Positions 2,723 to 12,162 of a stretch of 64,000 nt of DNA are shown in pieces. Below the pieces are notes generated by a model that saw nothing but the letters and a program-made list of their open reading frames with translations, was not told the origin of the DNA and did no database searches. Location of the stretch: the IMG/VR virus record IMGVR_UViG_3300047994_000617, positions 1-64,000 of that record. One strand, written 5' to 3'. The position numbers and the translations under genes were made by a program. Origin of the DNA: a virus. Position 1 is the first letter of the stretch. Every line of letters begins with the position of its first letter.

Positions 2723-3141
2723 GCGCGGCGCAACCCGTCGAGACCGGCGCGCGGGCGCCCACCGTCATCTTCGTCGCCTGGTGTCCGGTCCACGGACCCC
2801 TCGTGGCCGATCTGCACCGCAAGGACGCGCTGCACACGGTTTGCGGCGACCAGAGCGCGGCCAAGGAGTGTGACCGCGCCGGCGGGATCCAGGTGAGCCG
2901 CTACATCCTCGCGCCGACGGCGAAACGGACCGGGCGTCTTCCAACCCTCGCCGCTGGCGTCCTGGCGCTGCTCTCGCTCGGCGGGTGCATCGTAGTTCCG
3001 CCCGCGGCCCCCTGCTCCTCCACGGCCCCGTCGCCGACCACGTCCATGGCCTCGGCCTGCCAGGAGGCCACCAAGCCGCTCTACCCGCCGCCGGGGGACC
3101 ATCCGATCTTCACCGATCCGGGCTGGGAGACGTGCCGATGA
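2719..3141 (+). CDS. Hypothetical protein
   Basis: GTGA overlap coupling. Confidence 0.6.
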   Translation: MSAAQPVETGARAPTVIFVAWCPVHGPLVADLHRKDALHTVCGDQSAAKECDRAGGIQVSRYILAPTAKRTGRLPTLAAGVLALLSLGGCIVVPPAAPCSSTAPSPTTSMASACQEATKPLYPPPGDHPIFTDPGWETCR

Positions 3142-5717
3142 CCCCCAAGGAGTACACGCTCCTCTGCCTGTTCTGCGGCCTCGGCGGGGGCGGGCTCGGC
3201 TTCAAGAACGCGCACGCCCGGCTCTTCGGGACCGACGCGACGTTCCGTCTGCTCGGGGGGATCGACAACGATCCCGGCGCCTGTGAGGACTGGGAGTACC
3301 TGACCAAGAGCCCTGCCCTGTGCGCCGACCTCGCGACGATGACGCCGGGGGCGCTCCGCGAGTTCGTCGGGCCCGTCGCGCCCGATGTCGTGTTCGACAG
3401 CGCGCCGTGCAAGGCCGACTCCGGCCTCACCAACCGCGTGTTGGCGAAGACGGCGAAGTACGTCGACATGGCGGAGCTCTACGTCACCGGCGTCGAGCTG
3501 CTGCTCACCACGTGGGACGTCCCTCCGAAGCTCGTCCTCAAGGAGAACGTCTCTCGCATCTTGAGCAACGGCGCCGATCGCGTGGCCCGCGTGACGAAGA
3601 TGATGGAGGAGGCCGGCTACGCCGTTCACATCTCCACGCACGACTGCGGCGAGCTGGGCGGGCTCGCGCAGCACCGCCGGCGGGCGCTCATGGTCTGCCG
3701 CCTGAAGAGCAAGGTCACCTGCTACCTCTACCAGCCCCCCAAGCGCCGGGTGCGGGCCTGCGGCGAGGTCCTCGGCGAGCTCCCTCTGCCCGAGACGCCC
3801 TCCGCCGGGCCCATGCACAAGATGCCGCGGATCGGGTGGATGACCTGGCTCCGACTCGCGATGATCCCGCCCTCGGGCGACCACCGTGACCTCCCGGGCG
3901 TGCTCGCCGAGCACCAGGCGCGCAGCGCGGTGTGGGCGCGGCAGCACGTCGAAGCCTGGGGCGACCCGAGCGTCACGGTCACGACCTCGGGCACGAACGG
4001 CGCCTACGGCGTCGCCGATCCTCGGGTGGGCGACGAGCCGCTCGTCGTCGACCGGCTCAACGGCGCGTTCCGCGTGGAAGACTGGGCGGACCCCTCGCAC
4101 ACGATCGTCGGCCCGCACGGCACGGGTGGCAACCCCCACGTCGCCGACCCGCGTGTCGGCGTTCCCGCGTGCTCGTTCGGGAGCGCGTTCGGCGTGAAGG
4201 CGTGGGGGGAGCCGGGCGCCACGGCCACGGGTCATGGCGGGCCCGGCGGCGGTGCGTTCACCGTCGCCGATCCTCGGGTGGTCGGCTCCGACGACTGGCA
4301 CCCCGGCGCCTTCGGCGTGAAGGGCTTCGCCGACGCCGCCGGCACCGTGACGGGGCACGGACATCCGAGCGGCGGCGCCTTCGCGGTCGCCGATCCGAGG
4401 GTCGTCGAAGACGGTCGGTTCAACGGCGCGCACGGCGTGCGCGACTGGGACAAGCCAGCGACCACGGTCACCCAGGGTGGAGCCACCGGCGGGCGCTTCT
4501 CCGTCGCCGATCCGCGCGTCGTGGTGCCCGACAATAGTTTCCACGCCTACGGCGTGACGGATCTCGGCGAGGCCGCTGGGACCGTGACTTGCCACGGGCG
4601 CCCGGGCGGCGGTGCCTTCGCCGTCGCCGATAGCCGCGTCGTGCCCCAGGCCGGCAACGAGAACGCGCACTGGAACAAGCACCCGGTGACGCCCTGGGAG
4701 GGCCCGGCCGGCACCGTGGCGACCGCCACACGGCCCGGCTCGGGAGCGCCGTGCGTCGCCGATCCCCGCGCGATCGGCGCGAACCCGACGGATGGCCGCT
4801 TCTCGTCGCTCGGCGTGATGCCCTGGGACGCCGCGAGCGGCACGATCACGTCGGGAGCGCGCCCCTCTCGCGGCCGGTTCGCGGTCGCCGATGGCCGGCT
4901 CGTGGGTGCCGGGGGCGAGCCCGAGCCCGTCGAGATCGGCAAGGGCGCGTACGGGCGGAAGGACCAGCCCGGCGACCGCTTCCGCGGTTCGCTCGGCGTC
5001 GTGCGCTGGGACGCTCCCGTCGGCGTGGTCTCCAGCGCGGGCAACCCCGCCAAGGGGCCGTTCTCGGTGGCCGATGTCCGGATGCACCGGACGCCGGGCC
5101 GGAACCCCGACCACTGCATGTACGTCCTGCCGTGGTCGGCGCCGAGCTTCACCGTCCACGGCCAGGCCAACCCGGGCACGGGGGCCTACACGGTCGCGGA
5201 CGGCCGCGAGGAGGCGCAGGCGTTCGGCTTCCTCTCGCTCGACGAGGCGATGGGCACGATCAACGCGGAGGGCTGCGTCGAGCCGGGCCCCTGGGCGATC
5301 GTCGACACCGAGGGCGACACGCTGGCGTTCATCCACGGGGCCAAGCGGAGCCCCTTCGTGCTCATCGAGGAGCCGGCCAAGACGAAGCGCGGCAAGCCCA
5401 AGCTCCGCCGTGTCGACGTACCGGTCGTCATCCTCGTAGACGGCCTCTGGAAGCGCCCGATGACGCCCCTGGAGCTGGCCCGCCTCCAGGACCTGCCTGC
5501 GTTCGTCGACGGCAAGCCGCTCAAGCTCTCCGGCGAGAACGTCGGCGCTTGGGTCGAGCGCATCGGCAACGCCGTCCCCGTCGGCACGGCCAAGGCGATC
5601 GCCGAGCAGATGCTTCTGACGCTGCTCTCGTCCGAGATCGGGGCCGGCATGGCGCCGAGCGGCGGTCTGGTGTGGGTGACGCCGGAGGCGAGCGCGCTGG
5701 AAGCGGGGGCGCCGTGA
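3138..5717 (+). CDS. C5 DNA cytosine methyltransferase with 10 internal ~40-aa repeats
   Basis: Motifs FCGLGG, SAPC, ENV, QHRRR, TPLELARLQ, IGNAVP; VAD-x-R repeats. Confidence 0.92.
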   Translation: MTPKEYTLLCLFCGLGGGGLGFKNAHARLFGTDATFRLLGGIDNDPGACEDWEYLTKSPALCADLATMTPGALREFVGPVAPDVVFDSAPCKADSGLTNRVLAKTAKYVDMAELYVTGVELLLTTWDVPPKLVLKENVSRILSNGADRVARVTKMMEEAGYAVHISTHDCGELGGLAQHRRRALMVCRLKSKVTCYLYQPPKRRVRACGEVLGELPLPETPSAGPMHKMPRIGWMTWLRLAMIPPSGDHRDLPGVLAEHQARSAVWARQHVEAWGDPSVTVTTSGTNGAYGVADPRVGDEPLVVDRLNGAFRVEDWADPSHTIVGPHGTGGNPHVADPRVGVPACSFGSAFGVKAWGEPGATATGHGGPGGGAFTVADPRVVGSDDWHPGAFGVKGFADAAGTVTGHGHPSGGAFAVADPRVVEDGRFNGAHGVRDWDKPATTVTQGGATGGRFSVADPRVVVPDNSFHAYGVTDLGEAAGTVTCHGRPGGGAFAVADSRVVPQAGNENAHWNKHPVTPWEGPAGTVATATRPGSGAPCVADPRAIGANPTDGRFSSLGVMPWDAASGTITSGARPSRGRFAVADGRLVGAGGEPEPVEIGKGAYGRKDQPGDRFRGSLGVVRWDAPVGVVSSAGNPAKGPFSVADVRMHRTPGRNPDHCMYVLPWSAPSFTVHGQANPGTGAYTVADGREEAQAFGFLSLDEAMGTINAEGCVEPGPWAIVDTEGDTLAFIHGAKRSPFVLIEEPAKTKRGKPKLRRVDVPVVILVDGLWKRPMTPLELARLQDLPAFVDGKPLKLSGENVGAWVERIGNAVPVGTAKAIAEQMLLTLLSSEIGAGMAPSGGLVWVTPEASALEAGAP

Positions 5718-5758
5718 AGATCATCCACTGCACGAGCCGCGGCAACCTCACTTCTTTC

Positions 5759-5858
5759 GGGGTCGAGCGGTCGGCCAGCACCCTCGGGTGCGCAAACGCT
5801 CACGGCGATAATGACGATCGCCTCCTGGCGCCTGGGTTCGAGTCCCAGGGACCCCACC
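5759..5858 (+). ncRNA. tmRNA/tRNA-like small RNA (tRNA-like-domain mimic)
   Basis: Acceptor GGGGTC/GACCCC+ACC, T-arm CTGGG-TTCGAGT-CCCAG, no D-stem, GCCAG/CTGGC helix enclosing two hairpins. Confidence 0.7.
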
Positions 5859-5880
5859 TCTCCGCGCCGATCGCGGAGCC

Positions 5881-5921
5881 AACAAAAGCCGAAACCCCGC
5901 GGGTGGAGCCGCGGGGCTCGG
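5881..5921. terminator. GC-rich hairpin, possible terminator (U-tract on the minus strand)
   Basis: AAAAGCCGAAA-CCCCGCGG-GTGGAG-CCGCGGGG-CTCGG. Confidence 0.45.
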
Positions 5922-5948
5922 TGATTCATCCACCGGAGTGCATGTCCG

Positions 5949-6293
5949 ATGAACGCGTCCACAGATAGCAGAGCGGTCTTTCCCAGCAACCTTCAACGCC
6001 CGCCGTCGCTCCTTGAGCTGGCGGAGGGCGACGTCGACACGCTCGACTGCGATCCCCAAGAGATCCTCTCCGAGCCGCCCCGTTCCCCGTCCGACCGTCC
6101 CGACGCGATCGTCTGCGTCCCGCCGGCGCGCCCGACCCCGCTGCCCGAGCTCACGGAGGAGGCCAGGGCGGCGGGCTGGAACCTGTACCGCCCGGCCCCC
6201 AGGGTCGACGCGGCCCCCGCCTGGCAAGAGAGGGTCCTGACCCTCCTCGCCGAGATCGAGGCCCAGGGCGGCGCGCCGGAAGGGAGCTCGTGA
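5949..6293 (+). CDS. Hypothetical protein
   Basis: ORF coupled to the next gene. Confidence 0.55.
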   Translation: MNASTDSRAVFPSNLQRPPSLLELAEGDVDTLDCDPQEILSEPPRSPSDRPDAIVCVPPARPTPLPELTEEARAAGWNLYRPAPRVDAAPAWQERVLTLLAEIEAQGGAPEGSS

Positions 6294-7129
6294 TGCGCGA
6301 CCTGCTCGACGCCCCCTCCTCCGAGCGGCCCGTGTACCTCGCCGATCTCGCCGAGCGCGAGAAGCTCCCGCCCAAGGCCCTGGGGATGCTCCGGCTGCTC
6401 CGAGAGGACCTCTCGCACAAGGGCACCCGCGACCGGGCCGTCATCCTGCTCGCTGCCGGCGGGATGGGCTTCTCCGCCGAGGAGATCGCCAACCTCGCGC
6501 GCACGGCCTGCGCAGAGCTTCCGGAAGGTCGCGTGTCCGTCACCCGACACCACCACGGGGGGCTGTCCGGGGTGTCCACGGAAACGACGGTGGGGCCGGA
6601 CCAAGCGCTGTCGATGGCGCTGCGGCTCTGGCTCCAGGTCCGGGACACCTTGGGGCCCCTCGAGGGCCCGCTCTTCATGGGCCTGGGAGACGATCCGTCG
6701 CATGGCCTGACCGCCCTGACGCCCGGGATGGTGCGCGCGATCCTCGGTGGCTACGTGACGCCCGCCGACGCGGCGAAGCGCACCGTCGAGACCCTCCAGA
6801 TGCTCTCCGTGGTGGCGGATGCCGAAGCGCTGTCCACGACCAGTGACCTTCTGAGCTTGCTGCTGACGCAAGGGTTGAACCTCACCCGTGATCGCCTCGC
6901 CCTCACGGCTGACCCGTTGGCAAGCGTCGCCATGGCGGTGAGGCACGGGATCACGCTCCAGAAGCGCGCCATCGCCTTCCAGAGGGCCACCGGCAACCCG
7001 CTCGACACCCGCGCCCTCTCCCGGCTCGAACGGGGCCTCTTCATCCTCCGCCGCGCCCGCATGGGCATCGTCTCGCAGCGGAGGATCGAGTCCGCGGAAG
7101 CACCGGCGGGAAGGGAGGGTGCCTCGTGA
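6290..7129 (+). CDS. Degenerate tyrosine-recombinase-like protein
   Basis: RDRAVILL..GFSAEEIANL, ALRLWL, GPLF, LTPGMVRAIL; catalytic Arg, HxxR and Tyr not seen. Confidence 0.6.
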   Translation: MMRDLLDAPSSERPVYLADLAEREKLPPKALGMLRLLREDLSHKGTRDRAVILLAAGGMGFSAEEIANLARTACAELPEGRVSVTRHHHGGLSGVSTETTVGPDQALSMALRLWLQVRDTLGPLEGPLFMGLGDDPSHGLTALTPGMVRAILGGYVTPADAAKRTVETLQMLSVVADAEALSTTSDLLSLLLTQGLNLTRDRLALTADPLASVAMAVRHGITLQKRAIAFQRATGNPLDTRALSRLERGLFILRRARMGIVSQRRIESAEAPAGREGAS

Positions 7130-8069: not shown

Positions 8070-8308
8070 GCCCCCAGCGCCATGCTTTCGACGTCCTCGG
8101 CTGGACCGCTCGCCTGGTGGGCCGGATCGCCTGCCTCTGCGGCCACCACGACTGGCAGCGCTCCGCGCCGGAGCGCTTCGTCGCCAACACCTGGCGGACC
8201 ATCGCCCGATGCCGTCGGTGCCTGAAGACGCAGACCACGATCGACGAGCGCCCCGCGGCGCACCTGTCGTGGGTCCCCGGCCAGAACGCGCCTGGGGGTG
8301 ACGCGTGA
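8066..8308 (+). CDS. Small Cys/His protein
   Basis: CLCGHHDW..CRRC; ATGA coupling. Confidence 0.6.
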   Translation: MSPQRHAFDVLGWTARLVGRIACLCGHHDWQRSAPERFVANTWRTIARCRRCLKTQTTIDERPAAHLSWVPGQNAPGGDA

Positions 8309-8964
8309 CCCCGGCCTCCATGCCCTACGTGGTCGTGGTCATCGACAAGGCCCTCGTCGAGACGCGGACGCCTGCGGCCGACGAGGCGAGCGCCCGCGCG
8401 ACCTGGGAGAAGGCGTGCGGCACCGCGGGCGTGCTCGCTGCCTCCGTACAGCGGACGGAGGGCCCGCACTCCGAGCGGTTCGTCCCGGGCTGTGAGTGGT
8501 CGGCGCTTGCTGCCCAGTCCGCTTCCCCCGTGGGCCCGGACGAGCTCCGCGCGATGGCCAGGGTCTGCCTGGGCGAGCGCGACGCGCTCGTCGGGGCTCG
8601 GAGCTGGGCGCTGGTGCTCCTGGCGGCCTCCGGCGTGCTTCGGCCGTCCGAGATCGCAGACCTGGGCGTCGTGCATGTCAAATTGCGCGCGCACCACGTC
8701 GTGATCAGCGCGGGCCCGCGGGAGATCACCCTCCACGCAGCCGCCGACGACACCGTGTGTCCCGTCGTGGCCCTCTCCTGCTGGATGGCCGTGCGGGAGG
8801 AGTGGCTCCCCGCATCTGAGGGGCCCTGCTTCTTCGCGATCGAGAGCGGAAGGGCCCGCCGACTGCGGCACGAGGAGGTCAGCGCCATCGTGTCCGTTAC
8901 GCGCAACCGAGCGGGCGCTCTCGGCGCGGCTGCCGGCGAGGGAGGCTCCGATGCCCAGGGCTGA
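8305..8964 (+). CDS. Truncated Cre-like tyrosine-recombinase fragment
   Basis: ARSWALVLL..LRPSEIADL, CPVVALSCW, GPCF; ends before HxxR and Tyr. Confidence 0.65.
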   Translation: MTPASMPYVVVVIDKALVETRTPAADEASARATWEKACGTAGVLAASVQRTEGPHSERFVPGCEWSALAAQSASPVGPDELRAMARVCLGERDALVGARSWALVLLAASGVLRPSEIADLGVVHVKLRAHHVVISAGPREITLHAAADDTVCPVVALSCWMAVREEWLPASEGPCFFAIESGRARRLRHEEVSAIVSVTRNRAGALGAAAGEGGSDAQG

Positions 8965-9821: not shown

Positions 9822-10651
9822 AGGGCCTCGTCGTCGAGAGCGGCGTCGCCGTCGGGGGTCGCGTGACGTACGCCGCCGCGAGTCACGAGGCTCTCCGCGC
9901 CCGGAACGAGGATCGGGCGCTCGTCGCCCCCGAGCTCGGTCTCTTCGGCGTCGCCGACGGCATGGGCGGGCACGCCGACGGCGCCAAAGCCGCCACGCTC
10001 GCCGTCGAGACGATGGCGCACACCGTCCGCGAGCGCATGATCTCGGGTCCGCTCGATCGCCATGCCGCCATCCTGTCGCGCTGTGCGCAGGCCGCCAACC
10101 TCGCCGTCTGGGAGGCGGGCCGGGGGCAAGGCGTCGCACGCATGGGGACCACGCTCGAAGCGGTCCTCGTCACCTGGCCCTGGCTTCTCGGCGTCCACGT
10201 CGGCGACAGCCGCGTGTACCTGCTCCGGCACGGTGCGCTGGTGCAGCTCACCGAGGATCACACCGTCCGCCAGGATTACATCAGGCGCGGCTTGGTCACC
10301 GCGGACGAGGCGACCGCACTCCTGCCCGCCAACGTGATCACCCGGGCGCTCGGCGCTGCGACCGTCAACGTCGACGCGTGGAACCATCGCGTGCGCCCGG
10401 GCGACAGCTTCCTGATCTGCTCTGACGGGCTTCACGGCGCCCTCCCGGACAGCGCCAGCGCCGACGCCCTCACCCAGGCACTCCGAGCCGGCCTTGGGGC
10501 CGAAGGGGCGATGCGGGCCCTCTTCGCGCGGGTGGCGCCGTTCGCGAGCGACAACGTGACCGCGGTGCTGCTCTGCGTGGGCGGACCCGCCGAGATCGAT
10601 GCCTCGCGATACCCGGATCGAAACGAAGCGCTGGAGGGATCTCGCTCATGA
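9818..10651 (+). CDS. PP2C/PPM-family Ser/Thr protein phosphatase
   Basis: RARNED, VADGMGG, MGTT, HVGDSRVY, TEDH, ITRALG, ICSDGL, DNVT. Confidence 0.95.
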   Translation: MKGLVVESGVAVGGRVTYAAASHEALRARNEDRALVAPELGLFGVADGMGGHADGAKAATLAVETMAHTVRERMISGPLDRHAAILSRCAQAANLAVWEAGRGQGVARMGTTLEAVLVTWPWLLGVHVGDSRVYLLRHGALVQLTEDHTVRQDYIRRGLVTADEATALLPANVITRALGAATVNVDAWNHRVRPGDSFLICSDGLHGALPDSASADALTQALRAGLGAEGAMRALFARVAPFASDNVTAVLLCVGGPAEIDASRYPDRNEALEGSRS

Positions 10652-12162
10652 TGTCCGTGCCGGATCGGTACCGCCGCGGTTCCCCCGTCAAGGTCGAGCC
10701 GCCTCTCGTGAACGGCCGCGTGCCGCCGCACGATCTCGACGCCGAGGCGGCCGTGCTCTCGGCCATCCTCCTGAGCCGGGACGCCCTCGATCGCGTGCTG
10801 GAGATCCTCAAGCCCGAGCACTTCTACTCGGACGCCAACGGCCGGATCTATGAGGCGGCCCAGGCCCTGGCCCTGGCGGGCCAGCCGATCGACGTGGTGC
10901 AGGTCGCCTCGTACCTCCGCGACCGTGAGCGCCTTGGGCAGGTCGGCGGGCTCGTCTATCTGGCCCAGCTCGCCGACGCCACGCCCGCCGTGGCGCACGT
11001 CGGCGCCCATGCCCAGACCGTCTACGAGAAGTGGCGGGTCCGGGCGCTGATCGCCACCTGCCAGCGGGTCTCCGCCGAGGGCTACGGCGACTACGGCACG
11101 GCGCAGGGGTTCATCGACGGCGCCGAGCACGACATCTACAAGCTCGCTCGCACCGCGGGGACCACCACCGTCCAGCCCATGAGCGCAGTCCTCCGGGTCG
11201 CGTTCAAGCAGTTGCAAGACGCAGCCGAGCGCGGCGACCGCATCACCGGGATCTCCACCGGCTACGACAAGCTCGACGGCAAGACTGCCGGCCTCCACGC
11301 CGGCGATCTCATGATCATCGCCGCCAGGCCGGGGATGGGGAAGACGAGCTTCACCACCGGGCTCGGCGTGAACGTCGCCTCACCGCGCGCGGTGGCCGGA
11401 GACCGCAACGAGCCGGAGCGCCAGGAACCCGGCTTCGGCGTGTGCATCTTCTCCCTGGAAATGCCACGCGAGCAGCTCGCCACCCGCATGGTCTGCGCCG
11501 AGGGCCGGGTCGACGTCGGCAAGGTCCGCCAGGGGTACCTTCAGCCCGACGACTGGCGCCGCCTCACCGAGGCCGCCGCTTACCTGTCGAGCCTCCCCCT
11601 CTGGATCGACGACACCTCCGCGCTCGGCATCCTTGAGCTCCGCGCCAAGGTCCGGCGGATCCAGGCCGAATACAACCGTGAGGCCATCCCTGCCGACCCG
11701 GTGAAGGGCACACCGGCGATCGCCGAGCGGAAGGTGGGCCTCGTGATCGTCGACTACCTCCAGCTCATGAAGGGGCGCGACGGGGTGAACAACCGCGAGC
11801 AGGAGATCAGCGAGATCAGCCGGGGCCTCAAGCAGCTCGCCAAGGAGCTCTCGGTCCCCGTCATCGCCCTCTCCCAGCTCAACCGCGCTGTCGAGACCCG
11901 GACCGTGAAGGGGGACAAGCGCCCCCAGCTCTCGGACCTCCGCGAATCCGGCGCGATCGAAGCGGACGCGGACACCATCATCTTCATCTACCGGGACGAG
12001 TATTACAACCCGGAGACCACCAACGCGAAGGGCATCGCGGAGCTCCTCATCGCGAAGCAGAGGAACGGTCCGACGGGCAAGGTGCTGACCCGGTTCACGG
12101 CCTCCTGCACGCGCTTCGATTCCCTCGCCGCCGGGGACTACCCCGAGATGGAGGAGCCGTGA
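10648..12162 (+). CDS. dnaB: Replicative DNA helicase DnaB
   Basis: PPHDLDAE, AARPGMGKT, FSLEM, IVDYLQL, LSQLNR, SDLRESGAIE, KQRNGPTG. Confidence 0.98.
   Translation: MMSVPDRYRRGSPVKVEPPLVNGRVPPHDLDAEAAVLSAILLSRDALDRVLEILKPEHFYSDANGRIYEAAQALALAGQPIDVVQVASYLRDRERLGQVGGLVYLAQLADATPAVAHVGAHAQTVYEKWRVRALIATCQRVSAEGYGDYGTAQGFIDGAEHDIYKLARTAGTTTVQPMSAVLRVAFKQLQDAAERGDRITGISTGYDKLDGKTAGLHAGDLMIIAARPGMGKTSFTTGLGVNVASPRAVAGDRNEPERQEPGFGVCIFSLEMPREQLATRMVCAEGRVDVGKVRQGYLQPDDWRRLTEAAAYLSSLPLWIDDTSALGILELRAKVRRIQAEYNREAIPADPVKGTPAIAERKVGLVIVDYLQLMKGRDGVNNREQEISEISRGLKQLAKELSVPVIALSQLNRAVETRTVKGDKRPQLSDLRESGAIEADADTIIFIYRDEYYNPETTNAKGIAELLIAKQRNGPTGKVLTRFTASCTRFDSLAAGDYPEMEEP

Follow-up and report, generated by a model that had tools for sequence, protein, structure and literature searches.

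We found that a 64,000-nt stretch of viral DNA (the window), the first half of an IMG/VR provirus record (IMGVR_UViG_3300047994_000617; 128,625 bases, about 72% G+C, estimated completeness 81%), contains a 100-nt element at positions 5759-5858 that is tRNA-shaped, yet is not a tRNA, a transfer-messenger RNA (tmRNA) or a Y RNA. It lies on the plus strand, in the gap between a C5 cytosine DNA methyltransferase (methylase) gene and a small downstream gene. With somewhat less than even confidence, we read this element as a non-decoding, tRNA-shaped processing or stability signal in an early plus-strand transcript, one that would also release a tRNA-like RNA of about 98 bases.

The letters of the element are all as the original prediction had read them. 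The 5' end GGGGTCGAGCGGTCGGC begins at 5759, a canonical T-arm (CTGGG-TTCGAGT-CCCAG) occupies 5832-5848, and a GACCCC-A-CC end follows at 5850-5858. CCA is not encoded, the final ACC being followed by a T. Two hairpins (5778-5791 and 5804-5822) are found inside. The minimum free energy of the 100 nt is -51.7 kcal/mol (z -3.1), and 0 of 200 shuffles were as stable. In the favoured fold, helices follow one another in tRNA order: an acceptor stem (element positions 1-6 paired with 92-97), a long arm (7-43), a second arm (46-64), an 8-nt linker and a T-arm (73-91). Pair probabilities are 1.0 for the acceptor stem, 0.82 for the T-stem, 0.9-1.0 for the inner hairpins and 0.99 for the stem 7-11/39-43. 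The identical fold was kept when 251 nt of context were included. All 12 base pairs of the acceptor/T-stem stack are intact. In the upper half, the acceptor stem and the T-stem, each of 6 bp, are predicted to stack, a consensus T-loop, a discriminator A and CC completing this half, and in the model an oversized arm would substitute for the D-arm in a four-way junction ordered as in tRNA. The original prediction had also placed a GCCAG/CTGGC helix in the P2 position. Both strands are present (GCCAG 5774-5778, CTGGC 5825-5829), but their pairing is disfavoured: forcing this helix gave -45.5 against -51.7 kcal/mol, 6.2 kcal/mol worse, with a pair probability near 0.

We then compared the element with chance expectation in random genomes generated by a first-order Markov model of the record's size and composition. 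Under a strict definition (bacterial consensus, five Watson-Crick pairs), a T-arm appeared in 6 of 1000 random genomes, and in 0 of 1000 together with at least 6 Watson-Crick acceptor pairs. The record itself holds a strict-consensus T-arm at a single site on either strand. When the definition was loosened to accept G-U pairs and a TTCRANY loop, 14% of 200 random genomes held a T-arm together with 6 acceptor pairs. Because such loose sites are common in random genomes, the weight rests on the exact consensus rather than on mere pairing. A covariance model built from the element's single sequence (R1) matched the record once, at the element, with 129.6 bits. A 17-base exact direct repeat of 5757-5773 (the end of the leader and the element's first 15 bases) was noted at 89646-89662 of the record, within a minus-strand coding region; it is probably due to chance, estimated at about 2-3% for any such match.

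Conservation of the element in a relative

An open reading frame (ORF), 5714-5968, runs across the element, and the original prediction had described it as coupled. The plus-strand frame is indeed open, but as a real gene it fails, its frame not being kept in a relative. A search of 5.8 billion proteins with the ORF translation returned one match, P0123, a 74-aa protein from a single 2,364-base contig. Across window positions 5753-5917, 49 of 57 residues are identical. P0123 and the ORF share only this middle part: the start of P0123 differs, and its tail, past the hairpin downstream of the element, follows the frame that starts at 5917 rather than that of the ORF, with agreement at 8 of 12 positions, the stop included. 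Because the frame shifts between the relatives, the conserved thing is not a protein and the ORF is not a gene; the gene caller had read through a conserved non-coding region. G+C contents at codon positions 1, 2 and 3 of the ORF are 0.65, 0.53 and 0.76, the genes called in the window by third-position G+C (GC3) having GC3 values of 0.85-0.94. Codon log-odds were 0.07 per codon for the ORF versus 0.23-0.33 in three neighbouring small genes, a measure that separates coding from intergenic sequence poorly here because its background model was built from wrong gene frames. A profile-free search of 1.84 billion representatives refound P0123 and gave one further candidate, P0124, which was rejected as an FG-GAP-type repeat protein matching only through an Asp/Gly-rich motif. 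A spurious ORF from a gene caller can thus be used as bait to find relatives of a non-coding element.

As the relative is seen as a translation, 67 of the 100 element positions are visible (41 paired, 26 unpaired) and 33 are hidden, 19 of these in stems. P0123 shows no insertion or deletion (indel) across the 100 nt. Only 3 of the 67 visible positions differ: position 26, in the first hairpin's loop (L24H), and positions 52 and 56, in the 7-nt loop. All three are unpaired (hypergeometric p = 0.054). The 5' body of the element is conserved as well as the 3' part. By contrast, of about 24 visible positions in the 36 nt after the downstream hairpin, at least 5 have changed, compared with 3 of 67 in the element (Fisher p = 0.028). 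Indels occur only outside the element and the hairpin, as a 6-base insertion in the spacer and a one-base indel past the hairpin; a further one-base indel just upstream of the element is tentative, being taken from the frame reading. Judged from these alignments, the element is non-coding and is conserved in its one known relative.

The downstream hairpin itself (5892-5919) scores as a minus-strand intrinsic terminator. As far as translation shows, the relative has the same A-rich flank and 5' arm, and a change in the 3' arm, at 5913, is uncompensated. One possibility is that the hairpin terminates an antisense transcript running across the beginning of the gene at 5949-6293. The nearby called genes are all on the plus strand, despite the minus-strand terminator score at 5882-5919.

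Comparison with known and newly found tRNA-like elements

With default settings, ARAGORN found neither a tRNA nor a tmRNA in the window, and it called the element only at the 80% threshold, among 410 calls in the record. Rfam gave no match in the element at the gathering score. With E up to 10, the T-arm alone matched, to tRNA with 11.7 bits (gathering score 29) and to mascRNA with 14.6 bits; the tmRNA and YrlA models, toward which the original prediction had pointed, gave no match up to the same E value. Nothing alignable to the D-arm or the anticodon arm of the tRNA model was present. The tRNA-mimic side of the original prediction, in which the element is tRNA-like and still distinct from a canonical tRNA, is supported, and one relative keeps the element.

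Shared with canonical tRNA (RF00005) are four helices in tRNA order, the 12-bp acceptor/T stack, the discriminator A and a consensus T-loop, the GTTCRANYC loop that closes a 5-bp stem in tRNA being present in the element. Unlike tRNA, the element has a 37-nt arm in place of the D-arm and lacks linker nucleotides 8-9. Its anticodon-position arm has 6 bp rather than 5, with A33 and C37 and a loop that varies in the relative; its variable region has 8 nt, and its Rfam score is below threshold. Of the 7 bp, discriminator and CCA of a canonical acceptor, the element has 6 Watson-Crick pairs followed by G-G, A73 and an encoded CC. Lacking a conserved loop at the anticodon position, the RNA does not decode. 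The virus seems to lack a canonical tRNA altogether, because ARAGORN's sole default call in the record, an 88-base 'tRNA-Gly(acc)' (125,561-125,648, minus strand, 81% G+C), sits in coding DNA and was rejected as a false call.

Bacteria and phages do use tRNA mimics, among them the YrlA RNAs, which are described in a section of PMC4201824 as substrates of RNase P and CCA addition. The element shares with YrlA and other Y RNAs a size of about 100 nt, a tRNA-like module and an occurrence in phages (PMC4201824). The same source describes the ends of YrlA as forming a Ro60-binding stem, its acceptor-like stem being capped by a loop (PMC4201824); in our element, by contrast, the ends form the acceptor stem, and neither an Rfam match nor a Ro60 gene in the record accompanies it. 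Genes for SmpB, Ro60 and RtcB were all absent from the virus record in searches with positive controls; the Ro60 (TROVE) scan covered the 128-kb record, and its control search was positive in 2 of 14 genomes.

We also searched for similar elements elsewhere. Blastn against GenBank phages returned no match to the element. R1 scans covered 55 of 80 viral methylase records: nothing was found in 5 large viral records, and 7 weak hits (13-21 bits) in 50 further records were rejected as G+C-rich noise because none has a T-loop. A degenerate acceptor plus T-loop pattern recovered ordinary tRNAs only (3 in viral contigs and at least 120 genome stretches among the matches listed), and the same pattern lacking the 5' strand gave 0 matches in viral contigs.

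Two metagenome contigs, both from one phage-like genome of 38% G+C, contain the 21-mer at the 3' end of our element; there it ends a 68-base tRNA-like element that neither ARAGORN nor Rfam calls. The two elements share 26 identical bases (T-arm, acceptor 3' strand, A and C) and nothing further, and both sit in a gap between small genes on the same strand. They differ in that the body of the 68-base element is a single 8-bp hairpin that cannot be aligned with ours, and its acceptor 5' strand differs and pairs less well. The 26-base identity may reflect kinship, shared constraint or coincidence among very many tRNA-like sequences.

The T-arm 18-mer occurs in at least 119 viral loci among the matches listed. 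When ARAGORN was applied to 120 listed T-arm matches, 91 were called as tRNAs (48 of them tRNA-Lys-UUU) and 29 were uncalled. Among these matches, 13 of the 29 uncalled loci form one family of minihelices of about 43 bases in viruses of 60-65% G+C, each consisting of a 5-bp acceptor stem, a conserved 12-base linker, the element's 17-nt T-arm and then A-CU. The acceptor exists in three fully compensated versions, in 6, 5 and 2 of the listed loci. Of 7 of these 13 loci that were roughly checked, 5 have an ORF beginning 6-51 nt downstream on the same strand, and in 2 an ORF of high third-position G+C spans the minihelix. Our literature searches found no description of phage tRNA top-half minihelices. 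The element has in common with them the identical 17-nt T-arm, the A-C tail, a G+C-rich viral genome and an intergenic position between genes on the same strand. It falls outside the family, because it lacks the linker motif and has a two-hairpin body of 66 nt, the minihelices being 41-48 nt long with the 12-nt linker. In concept, it is a full-size relative of the minihelices. Among the other uncalled T-arm matches, some look like non-canonical phage tRNAs, such as the locus L299 (plus strand, T-arm 11912-11929), in which a Phe-type anticodon loop is combined with an unusual D region; others, such as the tRNA-Lys-like L270, resemble 3' tRNA fragments of the kind found at attachment (att) sites.

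A candidate processing signal and its alternatives

The acceptor/T-arm half, with its T-loop, is the part of a tRNA recognised by RNase P, by 3'-end trimming and by CCA-adding enzymes. If the element acts as a processing or stability signal, host RNase P would cut between 5758 and 5759, and a 3' activity would trim near 5856-5858. The two cuts would part the methylase message from the downstream message, and each would gain a defined, structured end. The released tRNA-like RNA of about 98 nt might be CCA-tailed and stable, and its conserved full-size body hints that it could act in trans. A 151-nt contig from RNA libraries X3 and X4, which look like one data set filed twice, spans 5666-5816, from the 3' end of the methylase gene to element position 58. 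It fits with co-transcription of methylase and element, as does the lack of a promoter-like site ahead of the element, the operon itself being presumed. The strict T-arm with its acceptor stem, the robust fold, the site within a run of same-strand viral genes and the conservation in P0123 also favour this reading.

There are precedents for the steps proposed. A passage of PMC11143913 describes RNase P cutting phage RNAs (M3; C4 of P1 and P7) and polycistronic mRNAs. In plant mitochondria, tRNA-like t-elements are associated with mRNA ends (PMC1920247). Among viral contigs, the minihelices with the identical T-arm, mostly situated in gaps ahead of same-strand ORFs, are a further precedent. Like t-elements and mascRNA, for which cuts by RNase P or RNase Z that define mRNA ends have been proposed or shown (PMC1920247), the element has a non-decoding tRNA-like fold within a longer transcript. 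The T-arm is the part of the element that matches the mascRNA model. Unlike them, it comes from another domain of life and occurs as one copy per genome.

Several points weigh against a processing or stability signal: 1) cleavage, a discrete RNA and CCA addition are all unseen, and the sole RNA-library contig bridges 5758/5759 uncut, although it may be DNA carry-over; 2) there is one copy per genome, and punctuation systems are usually multi-copy; 3) the base at -1 is C, and RNase P prefers U there; 4) conservation is drawn from a single relative known as a translated ORF, with 33 of 100 positions hidden and compensatory change undemonstrable, and the loop-only pattern rests on 3 changes; 5) the downstream hairpin resembles an opposite-strand terminator, which the model leaves unexplained; and 6) recombinase-like paralogues downstream keep alive a reading of the element as a DNA site.

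This DNA-site reading survives best among the alternatives, although we consider it unlikely. In this reading, a relic or secondary attachment-type site would carry part of a tRNA gene, namely the T-arm and the 3' strand of the acceptor, the 5' GGGGTC complement would be fortuitous, and the function would be at the DNA level or absent. Partial tRNA genes made by integration typically keep precisely this part, and tRNA finders fold them oddly, as a section of PMC9897764 describes; like the element, they have a non-canonical 5' half (PMC9897764). A 6-bp complement 40-130 nt upstream is not rare once a T-arm exists, occurring for about one third of T-arms with loose pairing and, by our own arithmetic, for about 6% with Watson-Crick pairing. 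Two downstream genes, 6290-7129 and 8305-8964, are paralogues (34% identity over about 94 residues, pairwise E 4e-6) that show weak similarity to tyrosine recombinases over their first half. The best match, that of 8305-8964, reaches 16.8 bits in Pfam, below the family cut-off of 27.1, and 16.5 bits in NCBIfam. Structure models of both were poor (pLDDT 37 and 46), and no PDB sequence match was found. The shorter paralogue stops before the region that we take to hold the catalytic tyrosine. Both may be degenerate recombinase-like DNA binders.

Against an attachment-type site, no recombinase above a family cut-off was found, the best match lying 2.4 kb away. The exact 3' 22-mer was present in 0 of 185,579 species' genomes (one genome each), and a 23-mer of the 3' end in 0 of 2.9 million viral contigs. 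In 401 Myxococcota genomes, the closest sequences, from 13 genomes, had 3 mismatches over 25 bases, and each of the 13 departed from the element in the acceptor. No second copy exists in the 128-kb record, which, at 81% completeness, may be missing an end. Conservation of the 5' body equals that of the 3' part, with changes in the relative confined to loops. As viral genes lie on both sides, the element is not at a present integration junction; it is internal to the virus, and a matching complete tRNA, a repeat and an above-cut-off integrase were not found. The original prediction had named a decayed att-site fragment of a host gene among the things that would overturn it. These results make this unlikely and leave it as an alternative.

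A stand-alone tRNA mimic gene acting in trans is likewise unlikely and comes next. It would give a matured tRNA-like RNA that occupies, as decoy or sponge, a defence enzyme or a host factor that binds tRNA, with message processing incidental. A conserved body of full size, beyond the half required for processing, a single copy per genome, and the use of tRNA mimics such as YrlA by bacteria and phages (PMC4201824, as cited above) are in keeping with such a gene. On the other hand, no sigma-70-like promoter was found in 5000-7000, the partner genes Ro60, RtcB and SmpB were not found in the record, and X3 and X4, covering 5666-5816 only, give no sign of a discrete RNA. Absence of cover in other places carries no information, and the pieces from a DNA run, X5, were 19-38 nt long and were set aside. 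With an unconserved loop at the anticodon position, the RNA cannot imitate a single anticodon for anticodon nucleases.

Genes for tRNAs are common in large phages, and the element could be one such viral gene in decay, a pseudogene that no longer has a function. A canonical 3' half joined to a non-canonical 5' half, together with an ARAGORN call at the 80% threshold only, is what such decay might leave. We regard this as improbable: the element has changed less than its flanks and shows no indels in the relative, its 12-bp acceptor/T-stem stack is intact, and it has no D-arm or anticodon-arm trace alignable to the tRNA model.

The original prediction itself, a miniature tmRNA mimic binding SmpB, is very improbable. 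The element does have the tRNA-like ends, the aberrant D region with no normal D-stem and the discriminator A of a tmRNA, in which CCA need not be encoded, and reduced tmRNAs that have no mRNA part occur in jakobid mitochondria, as part of PMC3590771 describes. But even these most reduced forms keep G3-U70 (PMC3590771, same part), which the element lacks, as had been noted: position 3, G5761, pairs with C5853 as G-C. The frame across the element does read ...GCANAHGDNDDRLLAP..., as claimed for a tag, and it stays open to 5968, with neither a resume codon nor the in-frame stop; two of its codons, those of the loop in that frame, changed in P0123. No pseudoknot is predicted, in agreement with the earlier reading, and at about 100 nt the element matches neither a tmRNA covariance model nor ARAGORN's tmRNA search. 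SmpB is not encoded in the virus record, and the host would supply it. Finally, it is hardly credible that 5714-5968 is a small protein gene coupled to the methylase with an incidental tRNA likeness: its frame starts in a GTGA overlap on the methylase stop, its GC3 of 0.76 is the highest of the three frames there, and the gene caller predicted the 74-aa ORF across the same region in the relative, but the N-terminus differs in that relative, the C-terminus follows another window frame, no Pfam or NCBIfam family matches, and the codon log-odds, poorly discriminating here, are low.

Gene neighbourhood and meaning

The features described here are collected in Table 1. The gap that holds the element (5718-5948) is 231 nt long, with plus-strand genes on both sides, and the run of closely packed plus-strand genes around it extends to DnaB (10648-12162).

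Table 1. Features of the window around the element, and similar elements found elsewhere
Feature	Location	Strand	Remarks
C5 cytosine DNA methyltransferase gene	2985..5717	+	910 aa; PF00145, E 3.8e-18; directly upstream gene
Spurious ORF	5714..5968	+	frame lost in relative; no Pfam or NCBIfam family
Leader	5718..5758	+	41 nt, from methylase stop codon to element
tRNA-shaped element	5759..5858	+	100 nt, predicted four-way junction; canonical acceptor/T-arm half, non-canonical body
Acceptor stem, 5' strand	5759..5764	+	6 Watson-Crick pairs with 5850-5855; position 7 is G-G
Long arm in D-arm position	5765..5801	+	37 nt; stem 5765-5769/5797-5801 bears hairpin 5778-5791
Arm in anticodon position	5804..5822	+	6 bp, 7-nt loop AAUGACG; no U33, no purine 37
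T-arm	5831..5849	+	6-bp stem (5 bp in tRNA register), loop TTCGAGT
Acceptor 3' strand GACCCC, discriminator A5856, then CC	5850..5858	+	sequence; CCA not encoded
G+C-rich hairpin	5892..5919	.	33 nt 3' of element; minus-strand intrinsic terminator score, U-run 5891-5882; A-rich 5' flank on plus strand
Downstream gene	5949..6293	+	114 aa, GC3 0.88; no known family (Pfam, NCBIfam and PHROG-type searches included)
68-base tRNA-like element	L224:3257-3324, also L225:2579-2646		21-mer match
Minihelix loci	L239, L243, L247, L251, L256, L274, L287, L292, L296, L297, L303, L334, L335		

The methylase has 1682 homologues, and a relative of it is encoded in 564 of 591 candidate stretches of viral contigs. 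In 80 viral methylase loci, blastn, nhmmer and a T-loop motif search found no look-alike of the element; downstream genes were not shared except DnaB, matched in 7 loci, and ARAGORN, run on 60 of the 80, called 2 genes, neither adjoining the methylase. The DnaB of our virus is 45% identical to that of a Myxococcota genome and 43% to that of an alphaproteobacterial genome. DNA sequencing runs containing the complete stretch are labelled moss metagenome, a possible source. The ORF at 1-702 matches phrog_14517, and together with the viral relatives of the methylase this places viral genes on both sides of the element. For the gene at 6290-7129, 5.8 billion proteins yielded one homologue, P0122, which is 67-70% identical and may derive from a contig or relative other than that of P0123; no homologue was found in viral contigs. 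Upstream, about 1.35 kb (1637-2984) hold no ORF with gene-like third-position G+C and separate minus-strand genes, ending at 1636, from the plus-strand methylase gene; this stretch may be a divergent control region.

The element is real and has no Rfam match, and in kind it belongs to the tRNA-like structural signals already known. Plant mitochondria, plant RNA viruses and a mammalian long non-coding RNA offer known examples of such folds steering RNA processing. Our literature searches found no tRNA-like element described between the genes of a DNA phage. A bolder proposal, which we think unlikely, is that the element represents a class of full-size, non-decoding tRNA-shaped RNAs of large viruses, cut by RNase P, CCA-tailed and acting in trans as a decoy or sponge, while also punctuating the early message. 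If such a class exists, its targets would be defence enzymes or host factors that hold tRNAs by the 3' end or by the corner of acceptor and T-arm, and the 26-base identity with the element of the 38% G+C phage would be a conserved recognition surface. As for the processing or stability signal that we tentatively favour, if the fold is cut by the host enzymes that mature tRNAs, large viruses would be exploiting this machinery to separate their early messages and make them more stable, and would at the same time generate a tRNA look-alike whose own role could be tested.

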